NCBI GenBank assembly: GCA_963712745.1
Contig: CAVQJC010000012.1
Location: forward strand, 13,319 to 77,318
DNA length: 64,000 nucleotides
Direction: 5' to 3'
Source: an uncultured Chloroflexia bacterium
Lineage (GTDB): Bacteria > Chloroflexota > Limnocylindria > Limnocylindrales > CSP1-4
Part shown: positions 290 to 17,700 of the stretch, in pieces
How the letters are laid out: every line of letters begins with the position of its first letter
Position numbering within the stretch: position 1 is the first letter of the stretch
Position numbers and translations under genes: made by a program
Notes under the pieces: generated by a model
Database searches by the model: none
The model's input: the letters and a program-made list of their open reading frames with translations, nothing else
Told to the model about the DNA's origin: nothing

Positions 290-659
290 CGGCGCGATGT
301 CAGCGCACGGGACACGTCGTCGGCGGGCACCGGCACCTCGAGGGGTTGACACATGGGTGGCACGTCGCAGCTCGATGCCGCCCCTGTCGACCGCAGGAGC
401 GCGAGGCCAACCGGCGGCGGCCAATGGAGGCTCTGGTTCCTGCACCCCGCGCTGTGCGGAGGGTCGAACCGGCGCGAAGGATGACGAGACGCGGTCCCAT
501 GCCGTCGCCCGCGGCATGCGGTGCACCTCCGATCGGGAAGGCCTTCGCCCCCGCGCAATCGCACAGGAGTCGTTCACGGGCCGAGCGGGCCCCGTTGATC
601 GCGATCTCCGTCACCCAGTGGCCCTCGCCCGTTGGCACAATGGCGTTGAGGTGCTTCGC

Positions 660-1322
660 ATGGTGGGAGACCGCGGTTGTGTGGTTGGAGGCCGGTCTCC
701 AAACCAGGCTCGCCTGGATGAAGGGGAGTGGGCAGCGCTCGATCGGTGGGCGGACTTCGTCGCGAGGCGGTTGGCCACGCACTCCGGGTTCGATGAGCAC
801 GTGGCGAGGGACGTCAAGCAGGCTGCGCTCCTGAATCTGCTGCGAGGCCGCGAGGACCAGGGGCTCAGGATCCGGAGCACCAAGGCCTGGGTCCGGTGCG
901 TGATGAAACGCGGCTTCCACGACATCCACCGCGGCCGGCCCGGCGCCTGCGGGCCCGCGCGGTGCCCACAAGTCACCGACCTGGACGATCTGCCATCGCC
1001 GGGCGCAGACGGGCCAGAGGCCCGGGCGACGCGGCGCGACCTCATGGAGGAGGCCCAACGCCTGCTCGGCAGCCTCCCACCTCCTCACCGCGAGATCGCC
1101 TGTCTGCGGTTTCGAGAGGATTGGTCGCGCCGCGAGGTCATCGCGTGGCTGCGTCTGTGGCGCCCCGTTGGCGAGGAGTGCGCCCGCAAGTTGTTGCGTC
1201 AGACGAACCGCATGCTCTGGGCCCTGGGTCATGGTGTAGACGTCCGAGGGCGTTGGCCGGGTCGGTTTTCGGCGAAGAGAAACCGGTTTCTGCGTACCCC
1301 TCCCCCGCCGTTGCGCGACTAG
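660..1322 (+). CDS. ECF-type sigma-70 family factor (divergent)
   Basis: Region 2-like DVKQAALL...AWVRCVMKR and region 4-like LGSLPPPHREIACLRFREDWSRREV. ATG 660 has GAGGT upstream; the ORF is open from 297, so the start is uncertain. Confidence 0.65.
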   Translation: MVGDRGCVVGGRSPNQARLDEGEWAALDRWADFVARRLATHSGFDEHVARDVKQAALLNLLRGREDQGLRIRSTKAWVRCVMKRGFHDIHRGRPGACGPARCPQVTDLDDLPSPGADGPEARATRRDLMEEAQRLLGSLPPPHREIACLRFREDWSRREVIAWLRLWRPVGEECARKLLRQTNRMLWALGHGVDVRGRWPGRFSAKRNRFLRTPPPPLRD

Positions 1323-1418
1323 GGCTGTAGGGGCGCCGCGCAACGAGGAACGCAATCCTCGGAAGCCGGCCCGCCGGGCGGCACTCCACCCCGGTGGGCT
1401 CCGGACCCGGAGGACAGG

Positions 1419-1745
1419 ATGGAGATCCGTTCCCAGTTCGAGACCCCGGGCCAGCCCGAGGAGGGCGGGAGCCGGCCCAAGCCTGCTGCCCGGACCGAGG
1501 CTGGTGCCACGCGTCCCGCCGTGCTGCGCATCGACGTTCGCAGCGCCGTGACGGGCGAGACCTGCACGGTCGACTTGCAGCTCGGCAGCGAGGACGAGAA
1601 GGACTGGGTGGCGCTCCAGAGCGCGGAGATCGACCCCACCATCCGCCAGGTCAGATGGCCGGTCCCACCCGTTCCGGCCCGGCGACTGCGGCTCCAGCTC
1701 GAGCCGCACGGCGACACGGAGATCCGCCCGTGGCTCGAGTCGTGA
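1419..1745 (+). CDS. small beta-sandwich (galactose-binding/discoidin-like) hypothetical protein
   Basis: GGAGG RBS; VDLQLGSEDEKDW...PARRLRLQL resembles the S-x-D-x-x-x-W...R-x-x-R-L pattern of jelly-roll domains. Confidence 0.55.
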   Translation: MEIRSQFETPGQPEEGGSRPKPAARTEAGATRPAVLRIDVRSAVTGETCTVDLQLGSEDEKDWVALQSAEIDPTIRQVRWPVPPVPARRLRLQLEPHGDTEIRPWLES

Positions 1746-1786
1746 TCCGTCTGGCGCGCACCGGCATCCGTCTGGCGCGCACCGGC
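1745..1786. repeat. perfect 21-bp tandem duplication
   Basis: atccgtctggcgcgcaccggc x2. Confidence 0.9.
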
Positions 1787-1896
1787 TCGCTGCACCCGGG
1801 GACAACATCCCTGGCGGCGACCCATCCTCGGCCTCGGCGCCACCGGGCGATCGACGGCGGACCCGGGTACGTCATCTCCGATCGGACCGGTGCCCG

Positions 1897-2331
1897 ATGA
1901 GAGTGGCCAGCCGAGCCCAGCACGGCGTCCTGATCGCCTCGGCATCCGCCACGGCGCTGCAGTCCTCGGCGCCGACCCCCGGCCTCATCCCGCTCCTGAA
2001 GAGCCTCCCCTACGCGGCCGACGTGAACCAGCCGTTCCGCACCGACTGGGTCGCCTGCGATCCCCAGCACGAGAACGCGACCATCCACGTCCACTGCCAG
2101 ACGCTCTCGCCGGCCACCCTCGCCTTCGGGATCGGTGTCAAGATCCACAGCTCCTTCGACACCGTCGAGGCCTATCAGGTCGGTAGCAACATTGGCGTGA
2201 CCGGCGTGGGCAGCTACAGCACCGCCATCACGGCCGACCTCGGCCCGTGGCTGCGCGTCGAACTCATCAACGGCGAGGTCGTGCCGCTCTACGCCGTCCT
2301 CAGCGTCTGGCTCCAACCCAAGAGCAACTGA
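1897..2331 (+). CDS. HVHCQT-family small protein, paralogue 1
   Basis: DW...NATIHVHCQT...SSFD...GPWLRV...LSVWLQPKSN; has an N-terminal extension, start uncertain. Confidence 0.8.
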   Translation: MRVASRAQHGVLIASASATALQSSAPTPGLIPLLKSLPYAADVNQPFRTDWVACDPQHENATIHVHCQTLSPATLAFGIGVKIHSSFDTVEAYQVGSNIGVTGVGSYSTAITADLGPWLRVELINGEVVPLYAVLSVWLQPKSN

Positions 2332-2349
2332 ATCAGGAGGAGAACTGCA

Positions 2350-2700
2350 ATGGGACCGCTCGTTCTTGCGAAGAACTTCACGATCGCCATGGGCGTCGGC
2401 CAGACTTTCGTCGGCGATTGGATCGGGATGGACAGCCAGTTCCAGAACGGCACCATCCACGTCCACTGCCAGACGGTCACCCCGACGGCCGGAGGGGGCA
2501 TCGACGTCCAGGTCGAGACCTCCTACGACACGGTGGAGGCCAACCAGATCGGGGCCACCGTCACCGTCAACTCGACCGGGAGCCAGAGCCAGGGAATCAC
2601 TCAGGACATCGCCGCGATGGTGCGCCTGAAGCTGGTGAACTCCCAGGGTGCGGACATCTGGGCGACCTTGAGCGTCTGGCTCCAGCCCAAGAGCACGTAG
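2350..2700 (+). CDS. HVHCQT-family small protein, paralogue 2
   Basis: AGGAGG RBS; MGPLVLAKNF...GDW...NGTIHVHCQT...LSVWLQPKST. Confidence 0.9.
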   Translation: MGPLVLAKNFTIAMGVGQTFVGDWIGMDSQFQNGTIHVHCQTVTPTAGGGIDVQVETSYDTVEANQIGATVTVNSTGSQSQGITQDIAAMVRLKLVNSQGADIWATLSVWLQPKST

Positions 2701-2728
2701 CGCCTTTGGCGGGGAAGGGCTGTGCGCG

Positions 2729-3091
2729 ATGGGGGCGATCCTCCTGGCCAAGAACTTCTCGTTCGTGGCGGCCTCGGGCCAGTTCGTCTACGGGGACTGG
2801 GTCGAGGTCGACAGCCGATGGCTGCAGGGGAACATCCACGTCCACTGCCAGACGCTGTCGCCGCCGGGCGCGGGCAACGTGCTCGCGGTCGGCGTCCAGA
2901 CCTCGGCCGACGGCGTCGAGAGCAACGAGACCGTGTCGCCGATCAACGTCAATCAGCCAGGCTCGTACGACCAGCCGATTCCGGGGCCGGGCGCGAGCAT
3001 CGAGCGATTGGTGCGTCTCAAGCTCCAGGACAACACCGGCTCGTTCGTGATGGGCATCCTGAGCGTCTGGCTGGATCTCGAGACCGCGTAG
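2729..3091 (+). CDS. HVHCQT-family small protein, paralogue 3
   Basis: MGAILLAKNF...GDW...GNIHVHCQT...QTSADG...VRLKL...LSVWL. Confidence 0.9.
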   Translation: MGAILLAKNFSFVAASGQFVYGDWVEVDSRWLQGNIHVHCQTLSPPGAGNVLAVGVQTSADGVESNETVSPINVNQPGSYDQPIPGPGASIERLVRLKLQDNTGSFVMGILSVWLDLETA

Positions 3092-3119
3092 TACTGCGGA
3101 AGGGAAGGACAGGCAGCCG

Positions 3120-3473
3120 ATGGGTCCGCTGGTCCTGGCGAAGAACTTCCTGATGGTGGCGCACCAGGGGCAGCGGTTCCTGGGCGACTGGACGCCCATG
3201 GACAGCGAGTTCCAGAACGCCGAGATCCACGTGCACTGCCAGACGATCTCGCCCACGGGCCTGGGCAGCGGATTCACCACGTCGGTGGAGAGCTCGTTCG
3301 ACAGGGTAGAGAACTACCAGCTCGGCGGGGCGCTCGCGGTCAATGCGCCGTTCAGTCAGACCGCGCCGGTGACGTCCGACATCGGACCCTGGGTCCGGCT
3401 GCGCATCGAGAACGTGGAGGCGGTTCCGGTGGTCGGGATCCTCAGTGTCTGGCTGCAGGCGAAGAGCACATGA
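3120..3473 (+). CDS. HVHCQT-family small protein, paralogue 4
   Basis: MGPLVLAKNF...GDW...NAEIHVHCQT...SSFD...GPWVRL...LSVWLQAKST. Confidence 0.9.
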   Translation: MGPLVLAKNFLMVAHQGQRFLGDWTPMDSEFQNAEIHVHCQTISPTGLGSGFTTSVESSFDRVENYQLGGALAVNAPFSQTAPVTSDIGPWVRLRIENVEAVPVVGILSVWLQAKST

Positions 3474-3501
3474 TGCGCTTGAATACAGGTAGGAACGATG
3501 C

Positions 3502-4884
3502 ATGGGGCCGCTCACAGGATGGAAGTGCGCGCCATCAGTGCCAGCCTTGCCTAGTTCTGCTCCGACGCCTGCAACGGGCACATTGTCTGCCGCCCAAGGT
3601 CGTGCATTGTTCTGCTGCGCAGAGCGTCGAGGAATGACGAGAAGGGAGCATGGAGTGAGCTGCAAATGCCGGAGTGGATGTCTACATCGCGCCGAGCCTG
3701 AGCGAAAACTAGAGGGTCCGTCGAACTACGCCGCACGGTCCTCCACGCCTGTCCTGGGGCAATTCGTGGACCAGTCCGCCTATGCGACGCTCTCTCAGCG
3801 CTCCACGGACACACCGGCAACTGTTCTACCTGCAGGTGCCTCTTGCGGTAGTCCGGCGGCGCCTGGAGTCCAGCCGCGGTTCCGGCCCCTCGTTGCGCCA
3901 ACTCTGGGATCCGTGTGGGCCCCAGAAGGAGGTGTTGGCCACCTCGTCTACGGCGCGGGCCTGCCGCCTGCGACCTTTCGTGCGTCCGATGATGGCGATG
4001 ACGGAGTCAATGGGGGAAGTGGGATAGGTGCGGGCAGTGAGAATGGTGGGGGCGAGCCGCCGGCTCCCGTGATACGCAAGAGCACCAGCGTTGCGCCGGC
4101 TCCGCCCATCTGCTGTCCGAAGCTTTATTACCCCCTCAATCTAGATGGCCCAACGGTAGGCAAGAAGGGGGCCGCGCGCCTGCCTCAGTATAAGAGGCCC
4201 CTACACAAGAAGTTCCCCCACTGTAGGGAAATCAGCTTCAGCTTCTCGTGGAAGGCCAAGTTCGATCCCGCGCCGTCGCCCTGTCGTTGCTCCTGCTGTG
4301 AATTCCGCCAGATACTCCTCAAGAACGACGTGACTTTGGAGCAACAGGGACTGGGAAGTGGCAGTGGCAGCGGCGGGGAGAGTTGGAATCGCACATACCC
4401 AGATCCCGGAGCTGGCAAGGAGGACTGTCGCTGGACCTATCAGATCCACGAACTCAGGCCACCACACATGCCGATCAAGGATGCCACATATGTGAGGTTT
4501 GGAGGGCCGGACAGAGAGCCGGGTCCCTACTCTCCCCCCCCGCCATCGACGTTGCTCAAGGGACCCGAGTGCTATGGACATCGAAGGAAGGGAGCTGACG
4601 GAACGGGGCCCGATCCCGATCCTGGCTACCCGGCGGGTGATGACTGCCTGTACAGTGGAAAGGACACTCCCACGGTCATCATTCCCCCGAAGTGCACCTT
4701 CACCTGGATCTGGAAAGCAAAGGCGTTCATTCTTGACACGTGCTCTGGTGGTGAACATGAGGTGCGCTTCCTTGACGTCAAGGTGACGGGCGAGACGGAC
4801 TCAACGGGCGGCGTGGACAATCTGCACCTCACGCAAACTGTGACACAGTACCACAGTAGGCCTGCATACCCTGGTGAACGATGA
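3502..4884 (+). CDS. hypothetical protein with low-complexity N-terminus and Cys-rich C-terminal domain (putative polymorphic effector)
   Basis: 460-aa ORF with visibly lower GC than the upstream genes; CC, CRCSCCEFRQ, CYGHR, CLYSGKDTP, ILDTC; true start may be downstream (MTRREHG). Confidence 0.65.
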   Translation: MGPLTGWKCAPSVPALPSSAPTPATGTLSAAQGRALFCCAERRGMTRREHGVSCKCRSGCLHRAEPERKLEGPSNYAARSSTPVLGQFVDQSAYATLSQRSTDTPATVLPAGASCGSPAAPGVQPRFRPLVAPTLGSVWAPEGGVGHLVYGAGLPPATFRASDDGDDGVNGGSGIGAGSENGGGEPPAPVIRKSTSVAPAPPICCPKLYYPLNLDGPTVGKKGAARLPQYKRPLHKKFPHCREISFSFSWKAKFDPAPSPCRCSCCEFRQILLKNDVTLEQQGLGSGSGSGGESWNRTYPDPGAGKEDCRWTYQIHELRPPHMPIKDATYVRFGGPDREPGPYSPPPPSTLLKGPECYGHRRKGADGTGPDPDPGYPAGDDCLYSGKDTPTVIIPPKCTFTWIWKAKAFILDTCSGGEHEVRFLDVKVTGETDSTGGVDNLHLTQTVTQYHSRPAYPGER

Positions 4885-5489
4885 CGCTTTCAAGCGAATT
4901 GCGGCTTCCTCCCATTCGAGAACTGGGCGGATCGCCATCTTGGTCGACCGGGGCCTGTCGACTCGCACTGACGCTGCTCGCGATGGCCTTCAGTGCTGGC
5001 GCCTGCGGAGCGGAGAAGCCGAGCGCGAAGACTGCAACAGGCAGGAGCGCGATGCTCTCCACTACGGAGTGCTACTCGTGGAGCCGAAGAGGACTGCATC
5101 GCAACCAAGGGCCTGACACCCAGGGTGTTGATATTGCTCTGCACGCGAGCGGACAGTACGAGGCAGCGATCCACAGTCTGATGCTCGAGTCACTTTATGA
5201 ATCCGGCAGGTGGACCTCCGAACGTGGGAGAGTTCTGTTTCATCCTGCCGCTGACAGTGCCTACGTCCCGGCGTACCGTAGTCTCTACGCAGTTGCATGG
5301 GAGCCTGGTGAGTCACTCGGATGGGTTGTTGATGAGACTGCGGTGAAGGATCCACGCGACGGGCAGTCGCCGACATGGGAGACTGTCCAAGTTCAGTTCG
5401 TCAGGGCTAGCGCGACTGACTGCCACAGCGTGCAGGATGCTCTTAGGCGCGCTGTGGGTGCGAGCGGAAGCAGCGGAGAAACCAAGTAG
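4881..5489 (+). CDS. putative lipoprotein (candidate immunity partner)
   Basis: ATGA overlap with the upstream stop; hydrophobic stretch ending in lipobox-like AGA-C. Confidence 0.6.
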   Translation: MTLSSELRLPPIRELGGSPSWSTGACRLALTLLAMAFSAGACGAEKPSAKTATGRSAMLSTTECYSWSRRGLHRNQGPDTQGVDIALHASGQYEAAIHSLMLESLYESGRWTSERGRVLFHPAADSAYVPAYRSLYAVAWEPGESLGWVVDETAVKDPRDGQSPTWETVQVQFVRASATDCHSVQDALRRAVGASGSSGETK

Positions 5490-5508
5490 CTCGACCTCGT
5501 AGGTCGAG
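5490..5508. terminator. short hairpin after the lipoprotein gene
   Basis: ctcgacct-cgt-aggtcgag, 8-bp stem, no U tract. Confidence 0.3.
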
Positions 5509-5533
5509 AGGATCGACGGGAGGATCAGGTGTT

Positions 5534-5638
5534 GGTGACAACCGACATCGGACCCTGGGTCCGGCTGTGCTCGAGAACACGGAGGCATTCCCGGTGGTCG
5601 GGATCCTCAGTGTCTGGCTGCAACTGAGGAGAACCTAG
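5534..5638 (+). repeat. degenerate copy of the 3' end of paralogue 4 (3368-3473)
   Basis: Shares ccgacatcggaccctgggtccggctg and ccggtggtcgggatcctcagtgtctggctgca exactly; one 1-nt deletion; stop codon at the equivalent position. Confidence 0.92.
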
Positions 5639-5653
5639 GGCAGAGGAGGAAGT

Positions 5654-6284
5654 ATGGCGACGGATCCCTTGGGAGACTGTGCCTGCCAGAATGTGCAGCA
5701 TCCGGCGAGTGTGGCCGTACCTCGGCCGTCAGTCCTTTCGCCTCATGAGCTTGTGTATGTGACTCCCGGAACTCTACCCGGAGCACCGACAAGCGCCGCT
5801 TGGCGGCCGGGCGGCCTGCCTCTGCCAGCCTCGCACCCGCTTCAGAAACTGCCTTCGGAGTTCTTGGAGTCGTTAGTCGATGAGGTTCAGCGTAGCGGCA
5901 ACCTCCTAGAGGTTGCCTTGAGGGTGCGCGAGCCTCAAGGCTCGCCGGCGAACGCAACGCTGGTTGCTCAGCAGACGCTCGCCAGCGCCGGCCGACCATC
6001 TGCGTGCGAGGCGCTTGGCGCTTCCGAATCCTCCAGACTGGAACGAGTGGACCATGGCAAGTGGAGGGCCAACGGGCGGCCCGAGTGGGATGCGTGTGGT
6101 TCTTGACGGCACCATGGATGTGGCAGACGGCGAGACAGGTACGATTGGGTTTTCAACGAACTCGCATATCGAGGGGGCGGCGCCCAACAGCTGGGTCATG
6201 CAGGAGGTGAGGTGGTGGGAGTATGGCCTAGATCCCACTTGCGGGAAGCTCACATGGGAGACCGCATCCGTCTCCGACGCCTAG
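5654..6284 (+). pseudogene. second cassette ORF, apparently frameshifted and/or truncated
   Basis: GAGGAGG RBS before ATG 5654 (MATDPLGDCAC). Protein-like text continues in another frame (5964-6284: ...SWVMQEVRWWEYGLDPTCG) and then ends. Confidence 0.45.
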
Positions 6285-6322
6285 CTGACCCCCGCCAACC
6301 TGCACCGGCAGCTGGAGCTAGA

Positions 6323-6637
6323 TCAGCGACCATCCCAGGTGTAGACAAGGGTGAGACCGCTTGCCGGTCGACCATCCCAGGTGTAGTCAAGGGTGAGACC
6401 GCTTGCCGGTCGACCATCCCAGGTGTGGACAACGGTGAGACCGCTTGCCGGTCGACCATCCCAGGTGTGGTCAAGGGTGTCATCGCTCGCCAGTCGGCCA
6501 GCCCAGCTGGGGTCAGGCGCGGCGATCGTGAACGTGGGCGAGATCTCGGCCAGACCTCCCCGCGCGGCCGTCATGCCCGGCAACATCGTTGCCAGAAGAC
6601 CGCCCGCAACGAGGGCCATGATGAATCGCCTCTTCAC
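6323..6637 (-). CDS. secreted repeat peptide (signal peptide + TWDGRPASGLT repeats)
   Basis: AGGAGG RBS, GTG start, Sec-type signal MKRRFIMALVAGGLLATMLPG, 14-aa in-frame repeats. Confidence 0.75.
   Translation of the reverse strand: MKRRFIMALVAGGLLATMLPGMTAARGGLAEISPTFTIAAPDPSWAGRLASDDTLDHTWDGRPASGLTVVHTWDGRPASGLTLDYTWDGRPASGLTLVYTWDGR
6327..6479. repeat. 42-bp tandem repeat, about 3.6 copies (coding)
   Basis: cgaccatcccaggtgt[a/g]g[a/t]caa[g/c]ggtgagaccgcttgccggt at 6327, 6369, 6411, partial at 6453. Confidence 0.95.
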
Positions 6638-6901
6638 GAAGCATCCTCCTAGTCCCCCTGGACGGTCACGCGGTGTTGTAGCGGGGATCGCTGCTCGGCG
6701 CGACCGCAGGCCTGAAATGTACAGCGTGGTGGTATGCGTTGTCTAGCCACGGCCAAGAGATTCTCGGGGTCGCCGTTCTATGTCTATGTGGCGAGGCTCC
6801 GGCCCCAGGCTTCCCCGACGCGCAGGAGATGCTTGCTTCTGTCCCGGAGATGCTCGCCGACCAGTAGCCGCCCGGGCGGCACCTCGGCTGCCGGCATCGA
6901 G

Positions 6902-6976
6902 GCCGATGTCCATGCTGGAGGCGGACTCTGACTCCCGCCCAGCAGCACAGGGGTTCCGAATCCCCCCTTCGGCACC
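6902..6976 (+). ncRNA. tRNA-like element / tRNA 3'-end remnant
   Basis: GGGG-TTCCGAAT-CCCC T-arm followed by CTTCGGC-ACC; GCCGATG at 6902 can pair with CTTCGGC; central hairpin with CTCTGAC loop; no D-arm. Confidence 0.4.
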
Positions 6977-7070
6977 GCCAGCACACGACACCTGGGACGC
7001 TCGGGCGCGGGTGCTCGGTGCATACTGCAGCCATCGACCCTGCGCCGGGGCCGTCGACAGAGGGTGAACC

Positions 7071-8246: not shown

Positions 8247-8575
8247 CGGCCGTCCCGGTAGCGCTCCAACGTCGCCAGCTCGAGTTCGAGGTCGGCCACG
8301 TCGTGGCCGGCCGCGCGGTACGTGATGATGGCCCGGCGTCGCTCTTCGACCTCGCGCTCGACGAGTGTGGCGACCTCGTCCGGCCCCAGCTCCCGGCGCG
8401 GGACGTCGGCACTACCCTCGACTAGCGCGAACGGCCGCTCCTCGACCGGCACGGCCTCCGCGTTCGCCAGGGCCGTCTTGAGCGAAGCGATGGCCGCGAC
8501 CACCGCTCCACGACGGCCGCGACGAGCCCCCAGCAGGTCGGCCTCGAGTCGCGCCTGCAGCTCAGCGGGCTTCAC
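8243..8575 (-). CDS. GatB/YqeY-like small protein
   Basis: LQARL...AAIASLKTALANAEA...VPRREL...EREVEERRRA; overlaps both neighbours. Confidence 0.65.
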   Translation of the reverse strand: MKPAELQARLEADLLGARRGRRGAVVAAIASLKTALANAEAVPVEERPFALVEGSADVPRRELGPDEVATLVEREVEERRRAIITYRAAGHDVADLELELATLERYRDGR

Positions 8576-9474
8576 CGGGGGTCGTCCGCGGCAAGGTTCT
8601 CGTCCATCCAGTGCACTCCGAACTCGACCACGTCGGCAGCATCGAGGAGTTCGCTCGGCGCATCCCCGACCACGCCCGCACGATGTCGGCCGAGCGCGAG
8701 GTAGTCACGCAGGAGGTCTTCGAAGTAGTCCTTGCCCGGGTAGTCGACGATGCCCTCTGCGTCGTCGAGGCACTCGACGGTGCGGACGACCGGTCCTTCG
8801 CGTGTCGTCACCAGCCGATGCCGTCGCACACGCCGCTTGGGCGACACCGAGCAGAGGTACTCGGCGTGGTGGAGGGCAGTGACCGTGTCGAGGTCTGCGC
8901 CCAGTCGCAGGACGAGACCATCCCGCAGCAGCAGGCGCTCGAGCGGTGAGCCGGGACCGAAGTAGTCGTCCCAGGGCACGTCCGAGAGGAGCTCACCGGC
9001 CAGCGGGCCGGCGGCAGCGAAACGTGCCTCGGGATGGTCGCTGACCCTTGTCCCGGGCCGCCGACGGAAGACCTCAGCCAGCGTGCCGACCTCGGAGGCG
9101 GCGGGCGTACGTGCGGCGTCGAACGGCTCGGCGTCGGCCAGGAGAACGACACGGTCGGCCTCCGGGCGCTCGTTGACCCAGGCATGCCTGTCCTCCGCGC
9201 CCAGGACCATCAGCATCGTGCCCTCCTCGCCGAGGACATCACGGATGGCATCGATGACGCCGTCGGCGCCGCCCCAGACCGGCCCGAGCTTGCGCAGCGA
9301 GGCGTGGACCATCACGAGGTCGCCCGCTGAGAGGCCAAGGTGGCGAAGTCCGTCGGCGATGGCGCCTGGCGAGCGAGGTGTCACGTCCACGCACGTATCC
9401 TGCCATCGGCGGAACCCATCGGGGAGTACTGGCCGTTCCCGACCTCGATCCCACGGCAACGGTCCGCTCCGCAT
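8572..9474 (-). CDS. aminoglycoside N3-acetyltransferase (AAC(3)) family protein
   Basis: GDLVMVHASLRKLG, GGADGVIDA, RVSDHP, FGPGSPL, VLRLG, TALHHAEY; start uncertain. Confidence 0.85.
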   Translation of the reverse strand: MRSGPLPWDRGRERPVLPDGFRRWQDTCVDVTPRSPGAIADGLRHLGLSAGDLVMVHASLRKLGPVWGGADGVIDAIRDVLGEEGTMLMVLGAEDRHAWVNERPEADRVVLLADAEPFDAARTPAASEVGTLAEVFRRRPGTRVSDHPEARFAAAGPLAGELLSDVPWDDYFGPGSPLERLLLRDGLVLRLGADLDTVTALHHAEYLCSVSPKRRVRRHRLVTTREGPVVRTVECLDDAEGIVDYPGKDYFEDLLRDYLALGRHRAGVVGDAPSELLDAADVVEFGVHWMDENLAADDPR

Positions 9475-13008: not shown

Positions 13009-13830
13009 ATGATCAAGCTCCGAACCGCGGTCGCGACACTCGCGGCCCTGGCCCTGACCGCCGGCCTTGGCGCGTCGGCGCTGGCCGAGGATGAGCCCGA
13101 AGCGCAGCCGCTGGGCGTGTACGTGATCGAGGGCATCACCTGGATCCTCACCAGCCAGGCCATCGATGGCGAGCTTGTCGAGGTGCCTGACGGCGTGACC
13201 GTTTCGCTGCTCATGGAGGACGGCCGGGCCGGCGGCAGCGGCGGCTGCAACAGCTACTTCACCGACTACGAGCTCGACGGTTTCGACCTCTCGTTCGGTC
13301 CCGTGGGCTCGACCCTGATGGCCTGCCTGCCGCGCGTCTCGGACGTGGAGCAGGCCTTCTTCGCCAACCTGGGCCAGGTCGCGGCCTACCAGTCCGGCGG
13401 CATCCAGATGGCCTTGCTCGATGCCGCCGGGAACTCCATCCTCGGGTTCGACGCGGCCCCACCCGCCAGCGTGGTCGGCGCCTGGGTCGCCACCGGCATC
13501 AACAACCAGCTGGGCGAGAACGCCGGCGTGGTCAGCTCCGCCATCACCATGGAGGTGACCGCCGAGTTCAGGCCCGATGGGGACCTGACCGGTTTCGATG
13601 GCTGCAACAACTACTTCACGACCTACGAGGTCGACGGCGAGAGCATCGCCATCGACCCGATGATCGGCCAGACGATGATGGCCTGCCCATCCGACGAGCA
13701 CGCCGTGCAGGCACAGTGGTACATCGGGGCCTTGACCAAGGCCGCGACCTGGTCGATCGATGCCGGTGGCAACCTCGAGCTGCGCGATGCCGATGGCTCG
13801 CTGCAGGTGAGCTACTCGGCGGCGCCATAG
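13009..13830 (+). CDS. secreted tandem META-domain protein
   Basis: Signal peptide; two GxxGCN-Y...T-x-MAC repeats; GGAGG RBS. Confidence 0.88.
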   Translation: MIKLRTAVATLAALALTAGLGASALAEDEPEAQPLGVYVIEGITWILTSQAIDGELVEVPDGVTVSLLMEDGRAGGSGGCNSYFTDYELDGFDLSFGPVGSTLMACLPRVSDVEQAFFANLGQVAAYQSGGIQMALLDAAGNSILGFDAAPPASVVGAWVATGINNQLGENAGVVSSAITMEVTAEFRPDGDLTGFDGCNNYFTTYEVDGESIAIDPMIGQTMMACPSDEHAVQAQWYIGALTKAATWSIDAGGNLELRDADGSLQVSYSAAP

Positions 13831-14721: not shown

Positions 14722-17700
14722 CTACGCCAGCTGTAGCTGCAGCAGGCCGCCGAAGCGGCGGCCAACCTCCGAAAGCAGCTCGGCGTCGTAGGCGATGCCG
14801 ACCCCCAGCCGCATCTCCTGCGACCGCCCGGGCCCAGCCGGGATGTGCAGCACGATGGGCGTGCTCCCTGGGCGCGCGCGGATGAGCCCCTTGAGCTCGC
14901 CGAAGGCGCTGACGATCCGTTCGTCGGGCGCCTGCCCGAAACGGATGTGCAGGACCTGGTCCGGCCCAGCCTCGGCCGGTGAGGTGGCGGCTCGCTCCGC
15001 TGAAGCGACGGCTGCACCGGCCTCATCCGGCAGCGGCGGCTCGTCGGAGCCGGCGGGCGCCAGGCCGTCGAAGGCCGGAGGGGCGGCCGGTCCGGAGATC
15101 GGCTCGAGCGGATCCTGGGGAGGCAGGTCGAGCGGCGGTGGCAGGTCCGTGCGACCCCCCTCAGAGCTCGCCTGAGCGGCCGGCCCGGCCCGACGTGCGG
15201 GCGCGCCACCGATGGTGATGGTGACGGTGCCCTCGGGCTGGCTGCCTCGCAGCGGCGAGACACGCGGCACGACCAGGGTCTCCGTGGGGGAAGCTGCGGC
15301 CACGGTCATCGCGCCCGGCGGACCCCCGGGCGGGCGAACCGGGTCCTGCCCGTCCCCGCCCCGGCCCCCGCCGTTGCGTCCGCGGCCACGCCGTCCCCGC
15401 TCGCCGGCAGCGAACTCCTGCGCGAACGCGGCCTCGCCCAGGGCCGTGACTTCGTCCCAGGCCCAGACCGCGTCGGCCAGGATGACCGTCTCATCACCCT
15501 TGTGGTCGACCCGGCCGGCGAAGAGGAGCACCGCGTCATCGGCCAGCTTGGCAGCCACACCGGCATCAGCGTAGGTGCGCGGGAAGATGACCACATCGAC
15601 CGAGCCCTGCAGGTCCTCCAGGGTGACCACGGCCATCGATTCCTTGTTGCGGGTCAGGACCCGCCGGATGCCGACGGCCATGCCCCCGACGACGACCCGC
15701 TGCTGATCGAGACCTTCTCCGATATCGCCCGACCAGGCGTTCACATAGCGGCCCATCTCGGCGGCCATCTCGCCCAATGGATGATCGGAGAGGTACAGCC
15801 CCAGCAGTTCCTTTTCCCAGCGCAGCCGCTCACGCGAGGGTGCCTCGGTCGTCACCGGCAGACGCTGCTCGAGCCCGGCCCCGTCCTCGGCCATCATGTC
15901 GAAGAGCGAACCCTGGCCGGTGGCCCGGTCGCGCGCCTGCGCCTGGCCGTAGGCCATGGCTTCGTCGAGTCCCGCCAGCAGCTGCGCGGGATGGCCCAGG
16001 GTCTTGAGCGCATCGACCTTGATGAGCGCCTCCATGACGCGCTTGTTGACCAGACGCAGATCGACGCGTGCACACAGGTCGGCCAGCGACTTGAACTCGC
16101 CTCCGTCGTCGCGTGCGTCGATGATGGACCCGATGGCGCTCTCGCCCACGTTCTTGATGGCCAGCAGGCCGAAACGGATGGAATCGCCCTCGACGGTGAA
16201 GTCCACGAAGCTGCGGTGTACGTCCGGGCCCAGCACCTCGATACCGAGGCGGCGGCATTCGGCGATGGCGCCGGCGACCTTGTCGGTGTTGTCCTTGAAG
16301 GCGGTGAGCACACTGGTCATGTACTCGACCGGGTAGTTCGCCTTGAGGTAGGCGGTCTGATAGGCGATCAGGCCGTAGCAGGTGGCGTGGGCCTTGTTGA
16401 AACCGTAGCGCTCGAAGGGCTCGAAGGCCTTGAAGATGGCGTCGATGACGCCGGGTTCGACCCCCCGCTCGGCGGCCTGCCGCACGAACCTGTCCTTCTG
16501 CGCGCGCAGCACGTCCGACTTCTTCTTGCGGATGGCGTAGCCGAGCGTGTCGGCCTCGGGACCGGTGAATCCGCCGAGGGCGATGGCGGCGGCCATGATG
16601 TCCTCCTGGTAGACGAAGATCCCGTAGGTCTTCTCCAGGTACGGCTCCAGGAGCGGGTGCAGGTAGGTGACCTGCTCCTGCCCGTGTTTGCGCCGGATGT
16701 AGGCAGGGATGTTGTCCATGGGCCCGGGCCTGAAGAGCGCCACCATGGCCGCGAGGTCGTAGACCGAGGTGGGCCGCAGCTCCTTGATGTAGCGGCGCAT
16801 GCCCGCGGACTCCAGCTGGAAGACGCCCGTAGTCTCGCCGCTCGAGAGCAGCTTGAACGTCCTGGCGTCATCGAGCGGGATGGTGTCGAGGTCGATCCTG
16901 ACGCCGGCATGCTGGTCGATGAGGTCCACCGCCTGGCGCAGGATGGTGAGGTTGGAGAGGCCCAGGAAGTCGAACTTCAAGAGGCCCAGGGCCTCCACCC
17001 CGTGCATCTCGTACTGGGTCATGAGCGCATCGGAGTTGGTGGCCTTCTGCAGCGGCATCAGCTCCGTCAGCGGCTCGCGGCTGATGACGATGCCGGCGGC
17101 GTGGGTGGAGGCGTTGCGGGCCACGCCTTCGAGCTGCTTGGCGATGTCGATCAGCCTGTGGATGCCTTCGTCGCCCTCGTACATGTCGCGGAACGCCGGC
17201 GCCTGCTGGAGGGATTCGTCAAGCGTGATGCCGAGCGTCGTGGGGATGGCCTTGGCGATGCGGTCGACCTCGCCGTAGCCGTAACCCATGACCCGGCCGA
17301 CGTCGCGCACGGCTGCGCGGGCAAGCATCGTGCCGAAGGTGATGATCTGGGCCACGCGGTCCTGGCCGTACTTGCGGGTGACGTAGTTGATGACCTCGTC
17401 GCGGCGCGCGTCCTCGAAATCGACGTCGATATCCGGCATGGTCACGCGGTCGGGGTTGAGGAAACGCTCGAAGGGCAGGCCGTAGAGGATGGGGTCTACC
17501 GGCGTGATGCCCAGCGTGTAGGTCACGATCGAGCCCGGTGCCGAACCACGACAGGTGGTGGCGATGCCTTGCTCCTTGGCGTAGCGCACGAAGTCGGCCA
17601 CGATGAGGAAGTAGGCCGCGTAGTCCATGCTGATGATGACGCCGAGCTCGTAGTCGAGGCGCTCCTGGAGCGCGTCGGTGACCTCGCCGTAGCGCTGGCG

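Follow-up and report, generated by a model that had tools for sequence, protein, structure and literature searches.

The proteins XepA and YomS form homopentamers, and XepA is cytotoxic by a mechanism that is unknown, according to PMC6834076; PMC8812541 places XepA as a near neighbour of a portoglobovirus capsid protein. DUF6385 is described as a jelly-roll domain in proteins of archaeal viruses in PMC13700489, and elements that combine an integrase, a PrimPol and a DUF3987 helicase carry frequently exchanged cargo, defence included, as reported in PMC11724360. Here we describe an array of four tandem genes (P1-P4) for small single-jelly-roll proteins, followed by a cassette of exchangeable genes, near the left end of a 64,000-nucleotide stretch of DNA from an uncultured Chloroflexia bacterium (assembly GCA_963712745.1, contig CAVQJC010000012.1, named C12 in this work). 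The window, as this whole stretch is called hereafter, begins at contig base 13,319, and the upstream part of the same contig was analysed as L005. Comparison of the window with other loci showed that the gene order, one or more jelly-roll genes, then a variable open reading frame (ORF) and usually an ORF with a lipobox, is a constant feature. We tentatively favour the possibility that these genes represent a platform-payload-protector conflict module carried as cargo by integrative elements.

The jelly-roll array and its downstream cassette

The genes of the array and of the cassette that follows it are listed below in window coordinates (GC3 is the G+C content at third codon positions).

1897-2331, plus strand: P1, jelly-roll paralogue of 144 aa with a 28-aa N-terminal extension; GC3 0.92
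2350-2700, plus strand: P2, paralogue of 116 aa, the protein that was modelled with AlphaFold2
2729-3091, plus strand: P3, paralogue of 120 aa, supported by alignment and profile
3120-3473, plus strand: P4, paralogue of 117 aa, supported by alignment and profile; its last 105 nt are duplicated downstream
3502-4884, plus strand: ORF460, 460 aa, 19 Cys, with CKCRSGC at residue 54; GC3 0.64
4881-5489, plus strand: ORF202, 202 aa, putative lipoprotein in which a hydrophobic stretch ends in a lipobox-like AGAC (residue 42); GC3 0.62
5534-5638, plus strand: relic of the P4 3' end (105 nt, pseudogene), which matches 3368-3473
5654-6106 and 5964-6284, plus strand: short overlapping candidate ORFs (150 aa and 106 aa), probably older displaced cargo

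The four paralogues are separated by gaps of 18-28 nt, and P1, P3 and P4 are 46, 43 and 53% identical to P2 in pairwise alignment. Their alignment contains 28 invariant columns, including IHVHCQT, DW, S-x-D, R and LSVWL. Four co-oriented paralogues of 116-144 aa with these motifs had already been described in a previous annotation made from the letters of the window (hereafter the sequence-only reading), and the identities (43-53%) and invariant columns confirmed that description. Each protein matched a profile built from the same four sequences with E-values between 3e-60 and 9e-56, and a search of the 4.2-Mb assembly with this profile revealed no fifth copy at that threshold. GC3 was 0.92-0.94 in each of the four genes, which represents a strong coding signal. 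No N-terminal hydrophobic leader was present in any of them, and residues 4-14 form the first beta strand of the model described below, in agreement with the absence of a signal peptide that had been noted before.

P2 was modelled with AlphaFold2 using a 54-row alignment, which gave eight strands arranged in a single jelly roll (predicted local distance difference test, pLDDT, 92.9; predicted template modelling score, pTM, 0.83). This is the fold that the sequence-only reading had deduced from an alternating beta pattern, and it was corroborated by Foldseek and by a Foldseek-independent structural scan of 48,161 chains. The Foldseek matches in the PDB were generic jelly rolls (domain III of Cry proteins, VP2 of infectious bursal disease virus (IBDV), carbohydrate-binding modules, GOLD domains and PirA), with E ~1e-4 and template modelling (TM) scores of 0.45-0.61. 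In the structural scan, in which Z 7-8 corresponds to background, Z values of at least 8 were reached by 21 chains alone. The top chain was Bbp16 of phage BPP-1 (3j4u_H; Z 10.7, root mean square deviation 2.8 A, 110 of 116 residues aligned), and the next ones included the N-domain of XepA (10.4), IBDV VP2 (9.9), YomS (9.1), PirA (8.8 and 7.7), Ena2A (8.1) and satellite tobacco necrosis virus (STNV, 7.7). Among the viral models of BFVD, 181 matches were obtained at E up to 0.001, many of them to uncharacterised Caudovirales proteins of 105-130 aa with TM scores of 0.6-0.76. The nearest clusters of the ESM Atlas were 80-94% viral and the nearest named ones were Bbp16, DUF6385 and XepA; in the nearest named cluster the Bbp16 label was carried by 11% of the members. 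Judging from the model, the closest kin of the paralogues appear to be the small accessory jelly rolls of tailed phages.

The family was collected by a profile search of 1.84 billion representative proteins with a cut-off of E up to 0.001. This search provided 74 matches, of which 63 were small proteins of 64-184 aa. The remaining 11 were proteins of 609-6941 aa with 6-31 partial stretches each; they were set aside as compositional and excluded from the family count, and the five that were checked contained fn3, Kre9 or Reelin-type repeats, or nothing relevant. P1-P4 gave no match beyond chance level in Pfam, NCBIfam, PHROG or PADLOC (the weak matches of P2 to phrog_2175, E 0.0086, and to HadB, E 0.0017, were taken as chance), and with these four collections the earlier statement that the architecture corresponds to no named family or system was upheld. 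The sole Pfam family matched by more than one member was DUF6385 (PF19912), with 3 of the 54 aligned members and a best E of 0.082, far below significance. The hidden Markov model (HMM) of PF21190 (Bbp16) gave no match at E up to 1 for P1-P4, nor at E up to 10 for the 54 members, and that of PF27453 (XepA/YomS) matched neither set. Nothing below E 0.8 was found among PDB sequences with the family profile, that is, no solved structure related by sequence. Searches by tblastn or by pattern, of a kind that would miss distant relatives, did not detect the family in IMG/VR (pattern scans), among 50,697 phage records or among 72,556 plasmids, and no publication on the family or on the module turned up in a literature search of limited coverage.

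In the 54-member alignment W24 is the sole invariant residue, and D60, R92, S108 and K114 are conserved in at least 90% of the sequences. The IHVHCQT block, which is invariant in P1-P4 and nearly so in loci L007 and L008 (see below) and in protein P0002, is confined to this closest subfamily, where P3 of L007 has Ser in place of the Cys of HVHC; most of the 54 members show hydrophobic residues at this place (LVVIVKS, LWVDAKT and others). Since HVHC is limited to the closest relatives, the family as a whole has no metal site of this kind, and His-x-His-Cys, a plausible metal site in the sequence-only reading, is not supported as a defining one. Such a site may still exist within the HVHC subfamily.

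ORF460 starts 28 nt past the TGA of P4, in another frame, and its stop is overlapped by ORF202 by 4 nt. These two genes and the short ORFs behind them correspond to the low-GC Cys-rich ORF, the lipoprotein and the further ORF that had been recognised previously. No Pfam match at E up to 1 and no NCBIfam, PHROG or PADLOC match was found for ORF460, and ORF202 and the two short ORFs are equally devoid of family matches. One homologue of ORF460 was retrieved (P0096), which is 61% identical across residues 159-460, keeps every Cys of that stretch and contains CAC at a place similar to that of CKCRSGC. The C-terminal ~300 aa of ORF460 are a real conserved domain. The AlphaFold2 model of this domain, obtained from a two-sequence alignment, was unusable (pLDDT 32), and the ESM Atlas provided no usable match to it. 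With regard to ORF202, a soil DNA run that contained 0.05 of the sampled words yielded two identical contigs of 164 and 183 nt that lie inside this gene; no joints were covered, and no RNA run with the region was listed.

The G+C content drops from 0.65-0.68 across the paralogues to 0.59-0.61 across the cargo. GC3 values of 0.62-0.72 without periodicity were obtained for the cargo (ORF460, ORF202 and the short ORFs), compared with 0.79-0.92 for the backbone genes of the element, the sigma-like ORF and ORF108 (see below) and the still higher values of the paralogues. In composition, the cargo is foreign.

The relic at 5534-5638, which the sequence-only reading had not noticed, aligns with the end of P4 in two gapless blocks, 92% (37 nt) and 84% (64 nt) identical, between which a 1-nt deletion breaks the frame. 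The family HMM matches it in two frames and it ends in its own stop codon; ORF 5654-6106 starts 15 nt past this stop, with GGAGG 8 nt upstream. In our reading, the relic shows that a cassette has been replaced by recombination, for which the 3' end of the last jelly-roll gene served as anchor. The simplest course would be recombination of an incoming segment of ~2.1 kb (P4 3' end, ORF460 and ORF202) at a point within P4, by which the older cassette was displaced downstream. No further relics above noise were found by HMM scan of L005, L007, L008, L012, L014-L016, L029 and L030. The variable cargo cassettes postulated in the sequence-only reading are supported by this relic together with the varied downstream ORFs of the loci described next.

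Other loci of the family and the surrounding element

The window was compared with nine other loci from metagenome-assembled genomes (MAGs) and metagenome contigs, in which the genes follow each other in the order given.

L007, Planctomycetota MAG: four paralogues in window order, a payload gene cut by a Mutator-family transposase, a lipobox ORF
L008, Planctomycetota MAG: two or more family genes (one of them frameshifted), a 516-aa Cys-rich ORF
L012, Planctomycetota MAG: a single family gene, a 186-aa ORF, a 293-aa ORF, an integrase fragment, tRNA-Leu
L014, Planctomycetota MAG: DNA methylase, a 139-aa ORF, a single family gene, a 252-aa ORF, two ORFs with a lipobox
L015, Planctomycetia MAG: two family genes, a further one that is partial and inverted, a 287-aa ORF, a lipobox ORF, tRNA-Ser
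L016, 'Eisenbacteria' MAG: IstB, a 122-aa ORF, two family genes, a 397-aa Cys-rich ORF
L029, metagenome contig: radical-SAM gene, one copy, a 274-aa ORF, a lipobox ORF
L030, metagenome contig: a family gene truncated by the start of the contig, a 175-aa ORF, a secreted protein with HEAT repeats, tRNA-Met
Contig-left, on the contig of the window: a 110-aa ORF (L005 3150-3482), possible distant member, 19 nt, a 160-aa ORF with CECATC (L005 3502-3984)

Between one and four family genes are present per locus, and in the window as well as in all nine others a co-oriented non-family ORF comes after the last of them. These downstream ORFs are mostly unrelated: when 27 ORFs next to the family were compared, only four pairs were similar. 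Of the 10 candidate ORFs that were scored, 8 show a lipobox-like motif behind a hydrophobic stretch; the 293-aa ORF of L012 has a hydrophobic leader ending in Cys residues and no lipobox motif by the scoring rule. The motif C-x-C-x(1-5)-C occurs in the ORF directly after the last jelly-roll gene at four loci (residue 54 of ORF460 in the window, 6 in L008, 140 in L016 and 32 in contig-left), whereas the 29 other non-family ORFs that were scanned lack it. In L012, L015 and L030 a tRNA gene lies 0.3-0.7 kb past the last ORF of the module.

The genes upstream of the family vary by locus (sigma-like gene, DNA methylase, IstB, radical SAM and an 85-aa ORF), and the window is the sole sigma-like case among the five loci with an identifiable upstream gene; the link to a sigma factor that had been proposed is not conserved. 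Homologues that occur singly, with no link to sigma or variable ORFs, had been named in the sequence-only reading as the pattern that would speak against a system. Single copies were indeed found (L012, L014 and L029) and the sigma link is missing, whereas the variable downstream ORF is kept at every locus.

The best partners of P1-P4 of the window in L007 are P1-P4 of that locus in the same order (57, 63, 51 and 56% identity), although the 56% of P4 is also reached with P2 of L007 and a higher value (60%) with L008_Pb. In the same way, Pa of L015 pairs best with Pa of L016 (57%). Because this positional orthology between the window and L007 has been kept, distinct and non-redundant roles that were retained by the four paralogues are plausible. 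Co-folding of P1 (residues 29-144), P2, P3 and P4 with their own family alignments scored 0.02 against a mark of 0.32 and counts neither way.

The L007 array is contained in an insert of 6.7 kb that lies between two perfect direct repeats of 300 nt (8262-8561 and 14968-15267), a structure that reflects either an unusual integration site or an assembly effect. Each of these repeats lies inside a short array of 125-127-nt tandem units, and the insert also holds a RuvC-like gene (E 3e-13) and little else. P1 of L007 (L007 9568-9978) carries an internal 8-aa tandem duplication (FTSFDTVE twice), and the first family copy of L008 (L008 437-847) is split across two frames by a frameshift or a sequencing error. 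The contig-left 110-aa ORF has a family-like composition (GC3 0.81) and matched the family with E 0.18 by HMM and with E 9e-4 and a probability of 23% by hhalign; the contig-left pair may be a second, very divergent module on the contig of the window.

Upstream of the window, the minus strand encodes a backbone that comprises a tyrosine integrase (Phage_integrase, E 6e-17; phrog_1, E 4e-37), an excisionase-like ORF with HTH_17 (E 8e-8), a DUF3987 helicase (E 1.5e-61; phrog_2373) and two further ORFs of 438 and 488 aa without family match. The integrase, HTH_17 and the helicase all lie within ~7 kb, and no AEP PrimPol domain was detected in the 438-aa ORF. A piece resembling the 3' part of tRNA-Gly(CCC) was found by eye at L005 6299-6349, 320 nt beyond the integrase stop. 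It consists of the anticodon arm (CCC), the T arm and the acceptor 3' strand with CCA, with no matching 5' half; ARAGORN called no tRNA at this place, and no second copy of the piece was present on the island or in the genome. At the other side, the sequence left of window 6358 has no match longer than ~100 nt in 48 genomes of the same genus, and no member of the family was detected in 100 relatives or in 400 genomes sampled from the phylum. Given the backbone upstream, the absence of matches in relatives left of 6358 and the absence of the family from the relatives and the phylum sample, the array is best regarded as a cargo operon at the distal cargo end of an integrative mobile element of ~13 kb.

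The remaining features around the array in the window are the following.

660-1322, plus strand: divergent sigma-70/ECF-like ORF with weak HMM matches; its start is uncertain (open frame from 297)
1419-1745, plus strand: ORF108, 108 aa, first gene of the array, absent from the sequence-only reading; GC3 0.89
1746-1787: two tandem 21-nt units (20/21 identical), directly after the ORF108 stop and ~110 nt before P1
6285-6360: right edge of the island, approximate; sequence from 6358 matches genus relatives, and the syntenic core extends from ~6951
6323-6637, minus strand: host ORF

The ORF at 660-1322 (GC3 0.79) was matched by ten NCBIfam sigma models over residues ~36-180 with E-values from 7.7e-6 to 0.06, all of them below the curated cut-offs; TIGR02983 (E 7.7e-6) gave 25.9 bits against a cut-off of 141.55, and TIGR02937 (E 1.4e-4) 21.5 against 42.9 bits. 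Sigma70_r2 reached E 0.036 (14.3 against 24 bits) and phrog_1740 E 6.4e-5. One homologue of this ORF, 92% identical, was found in a collection of 5.8 billion sequences. ORF108 has no family match in Pfam, NCBIfam, PHROG or PADLOC. It was considered as a fifth paralogue and rejected (hhalign probability 1.1%), and its weak match to Fn3-II_PB4 (E 0.23) was taken as chance. The pair of 21-nt units may represent an operator, a promoter or another regulatory element. A promoter and terminator scan of 300-7000 revealed no plus-strand terminator and no more candidates than shuffled sequences give.

Several observations were made beside these features. A 42-nt tandem repeat with three full copies (90-100% identical) that degenerates at both ends occupies window 6285-6536; within ORF 6323-6637, which encodes a small protein with a signal-peptide-like N-terminus, it is translated into 14-aa repeats (TWDGRPASGLT...), and similar sequences recur at several further sites of this genome as well as in genus relatives. 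On the minus strand of L005 (~8546-8684), between the DUF3987 helicase and HTH_17, a small ORF contains a stretch similar to a TubC_N docking domain (E 4.9e-11), which is unexpected for an integrative element. The left end of the contig contains an Rhs core (L005 566-1327; TIGR03696, E 6.3e-22, 80 bits) with a ~180-aa C-terminal domain lacking any family match; upstream of it, YD-repeat-like peptides appear in three frames and the gene seems frameshifted or poorly assembled. Directly after the Rhs C-terminus, that is, in the position of an immunity gene, a HEAT-repeat protein with a lipobox (ASGC) is encoded (L005 ~2070-2831; HEAT_2, E 6e-12).

Possible functions of the module

In the platform-payload-protector module that we tentatively favour, the small, cytoplasmically made single-jelly-roll proteins (four in the window, 1-4 elsewhere) would be the conserved platform. 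The exchangeable payload would be the product of the gene directly downstream, often Cys-rich with C-x-C-x(1-5)-C and without signal peptide, and the lipoprotein gene that usually follows it would encode the protector. The jelly-roll proteins may oligomerise like their nearest structural neighbours XepA and YomS, both pentamers, and the oligomer would carry or present the payload. The latter would be a toxin or a binding protein that works outside the cytoplasm, and the lipoprotein would protect the producer as an immunity or exclusion factor. The occurrence of Cys-rich proteins without signal peptide suggests release by an unconventional route. The Rhs core and the HEAT lipoprotein on the same contig, as well as the HEAT repeats in the protein after the module in L030, fit a conflict module and are no proof of it. 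A bolder version, in which a capsid- or penton-like hetero-oligomer of jelly rolls would form a particle that exports disulfide-rich proteins docked via C-x-C, with the lipoprotein as antidote and with no relation to a known secretion system, tailocin or compartment, seems quite unlikely.

Several results weigh against the platform-payload-protector module. No toxin, binding or immunity domain was recognised in any payload or lipoprotein (Pfam, NCBIfam and PADLOC for the window, Pfam for the other loci), and six payload and lipoprotein proteins of other loci also lacked a PADLOC match. No route by which the payload could be exported is apparent, and in L008 the payload gene is not followed by a lipoprotein gene. 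Adjacency at an attachment-site (att)-proximal cargo hotspot can arise without any functional link, and the fact that the jelly-roll genes share the composition of the backbone, which the cargo does not, would also suit the last backbone gene beside such a hotspot. The structural Z of ~10 is only 2-3 units above the generic jelly-roll background.

A contractile injection system was considered as a partner and rejected for lack of enrichment. Sheath genes are present in 2 of 6 family-bearing genomes against 83 of 400 genomes in the phylum sample (which includes the unpublished genome G323), and in 1 of the 5 family-bearing genomes other than that of the window. Contig C20 of the assembly encodes Phage_sheath_1 (E 4.9e-26; 346490-346903) and, 6.4 kb apart, a PAAR gene (353299-353499), which may belong to an extracellular contractile injection system.

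One important question is whether P1-P4 are instead phage or satellite accessories, either cement proteins like Bbp16 or lysis pentamers like XepA and YomS, with the sigma-like protein as late activator and the downstream ORFs as unrelated morons in an att-proximal hotspot. This is the main rival, although a rather doubtful one. The nearest structures and language-model neighbours are precisely these phage proteins, with the many Caudovirales models of similar size in BFVD (105-130 aa, TM 0.6-0.76); the backbone of integrase and helicase is like that of satellites and small integrative elements, and its codon usage is shared by the paralogues and not by the cargo. P4-like satellites keep a decoration gene (psu) beside a variable hotspot and the integrase. 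On the other hand, no head, tail or lysis genes were found beside the family at the five loci with an identifiable upstream gene (nor head genes in the loci that were read), and in L029 the gene directly upstream is a host radical-SAM gene. The assembly, 84.6% complete, contains no HK97-type capsid, TerL or portal (Pfam models) and no VipB, the family was not found in the 50,697 phage records or the IMG/VR pattern scans, and the relic shows that cargo moves together with the 3' end of the jelly-roll gene. A further reading, in which the element would be an integrated virus-like replicon without a tail, with a pseudo-symmetric capsid formed by the four paralogues, a Cys-rich spike and the lipoprotein as membrane component, is very improbable. 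Single jelly rolls of such size form pentons and capsids (IBDV VP2, Z 9.9; STNV, Z 7.7), the four paralogues show positional orthology, the island has replication and transcription genes of its own, and XepA is a near neighbour of a portoglobovirus capsid protein (PMC8812541). Such a shell is contradicted by the existence of single- and two-copy loci, by the L007 array lying in a 6.7-kb insert without a recognised replication gene, by the lack of any packaging ATPase or membrane-protein set among the genes seen, and by the 116-aa proteins, which are bare jelly rolls without the arms usual in capsid proteins.

The rarity and patchiness of the module, its place on mobile elements at the att-proximal end and the likeness of the jelly rolls to phage structural proteins would also suit anti-phage defence or counter-defence cargo, in which the jelly rolls would be phage-mimicking sensors or decoys and the variable proteins membrane-directed effectors. 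Exchanged defence cargo is known from integrase, PrimPol and DUF3987 elements (PMC11724360). This explanation is unlikely: 0 of 15 tested proteins match a PADLOC model, no nuclease, NTPase or other usual effector domain was found, and the Cys-rich payloads suggest an extracytoplasmic location, unusual for defence effectors. The least probable reading is that the paralogues are small, cupin-like metal-binding proteins or enzymes that use HVHC. Although IHVHCQT is invariant in P1-P4 and H37 and H39 lie on one face of strand 33-44 (a geometry deduced from the model), the motif is replaced by hydrophobic residues in most members and by a Ser-containing version in L007 P3; in addition, no cupin appears among the listed structural matches and no cupin-type Gly/His/Glu spacing was seen by eye.

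If the platform-payload-protector module is real, it would represent a conflict system of modular design, based on a jelly roll of phage type, in which the delivery part is conserved as separate small genes and payloads are swapped by recombination at a defined anchor, a new architecture in the repertoire of polymorphic toxins and effectors. Clues to the function of a large class of small jelly-roll proteins of phages that are still uncharacterised (XepA/YomS, DUF6385 and many entries of BFVD) would also be gained. Should the paralogues be plain virion or lysis accessories, a new family would still have been named and a cargo hotspot documented in Planctomycetota islands. The module is rare, so far known from a few MAGs and metagenomes alone; with a family of ~63 small proteins in a set of 1.84 billion representatives, it is of limited ecological weight.

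Comparison with described systems

Bbp16 of BPP-1 (PDB 3j4u chain H, PF21190), which reportedly acts on an HK97-type head, is the best structural match and, at ~140 aa, a single jelly roll like the paralogues. It differs from the family in that there is no match at the sequence level and no head genes stand beside the family at any locus. XepA (PBSX, 6i56) and YomS (SPbeta, 6i5o), both in PF27453, share with the family small beta-sandwich or jelly-roll units and the lack of a signal peptide; however, they are lytic-cassette proteins of Bacillus prophages, whereas the family is found in MAGs of Planctomycetota type with no holin or endolysin nearby, and in the loci described here 1-4 paralogues are followed by variable ORFs and lipoproteins. 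DUF6385 (PF19912) is a viral single jelly-roll domain in a neighbouring ESM Atlas cluster, and is itself without known function.

The polymorphic toxin loci of the Rhs and contact-dependent inhibition (CDI) type resemble the window in the relic of a conserved 3' end that precedes an older cassette, and in a hypervariable payload followed by a small gene of protective appearance. Displaced 'orphan' cassettes occur in loci of this type, and an Rhs core with a HEAT lipoprotein is present on the contig of the window. In Rhs/CDI systems, however, the toxin domain is fused to the conserved body, whereas here the conserved part consists of one or more separate genes, and neither the payloads nor the lipoprotein of the window contain a recognisable toxin or immunity domain. 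PirA/PirB is similar in that a jelly-roll gene lies upstream of a larger partner on mobile DNA, with PirA (~110 aa) encoded directly upstream of PirB (~440 aa). The Z values of PirA (8.8 and 7.7) are within the generic jelly-roll range, and ORF460, unlike PirB, is Cys-rich and has no PirB- or Cry-type Pfam match at E up to 1.

With regard to the element that carries the module, the integrase, PrimPol and PriCT-DUF3987 elements differ in their cargo, which is pAgo (prokaryotic Argonaute) as against a jelly-roll module, and in the AEP PrimPol, which was not detected here. They agree with it in the combination of an integrase and a DUF3987 helicase next to a tRNA-type site, with cargo that is gained and lost (PMC11724360). 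Satellites of the P4 type and phage-inducible chromosomal islands (PICI) likewise combine, as here, an integrase with a replication module of their own in a small island.

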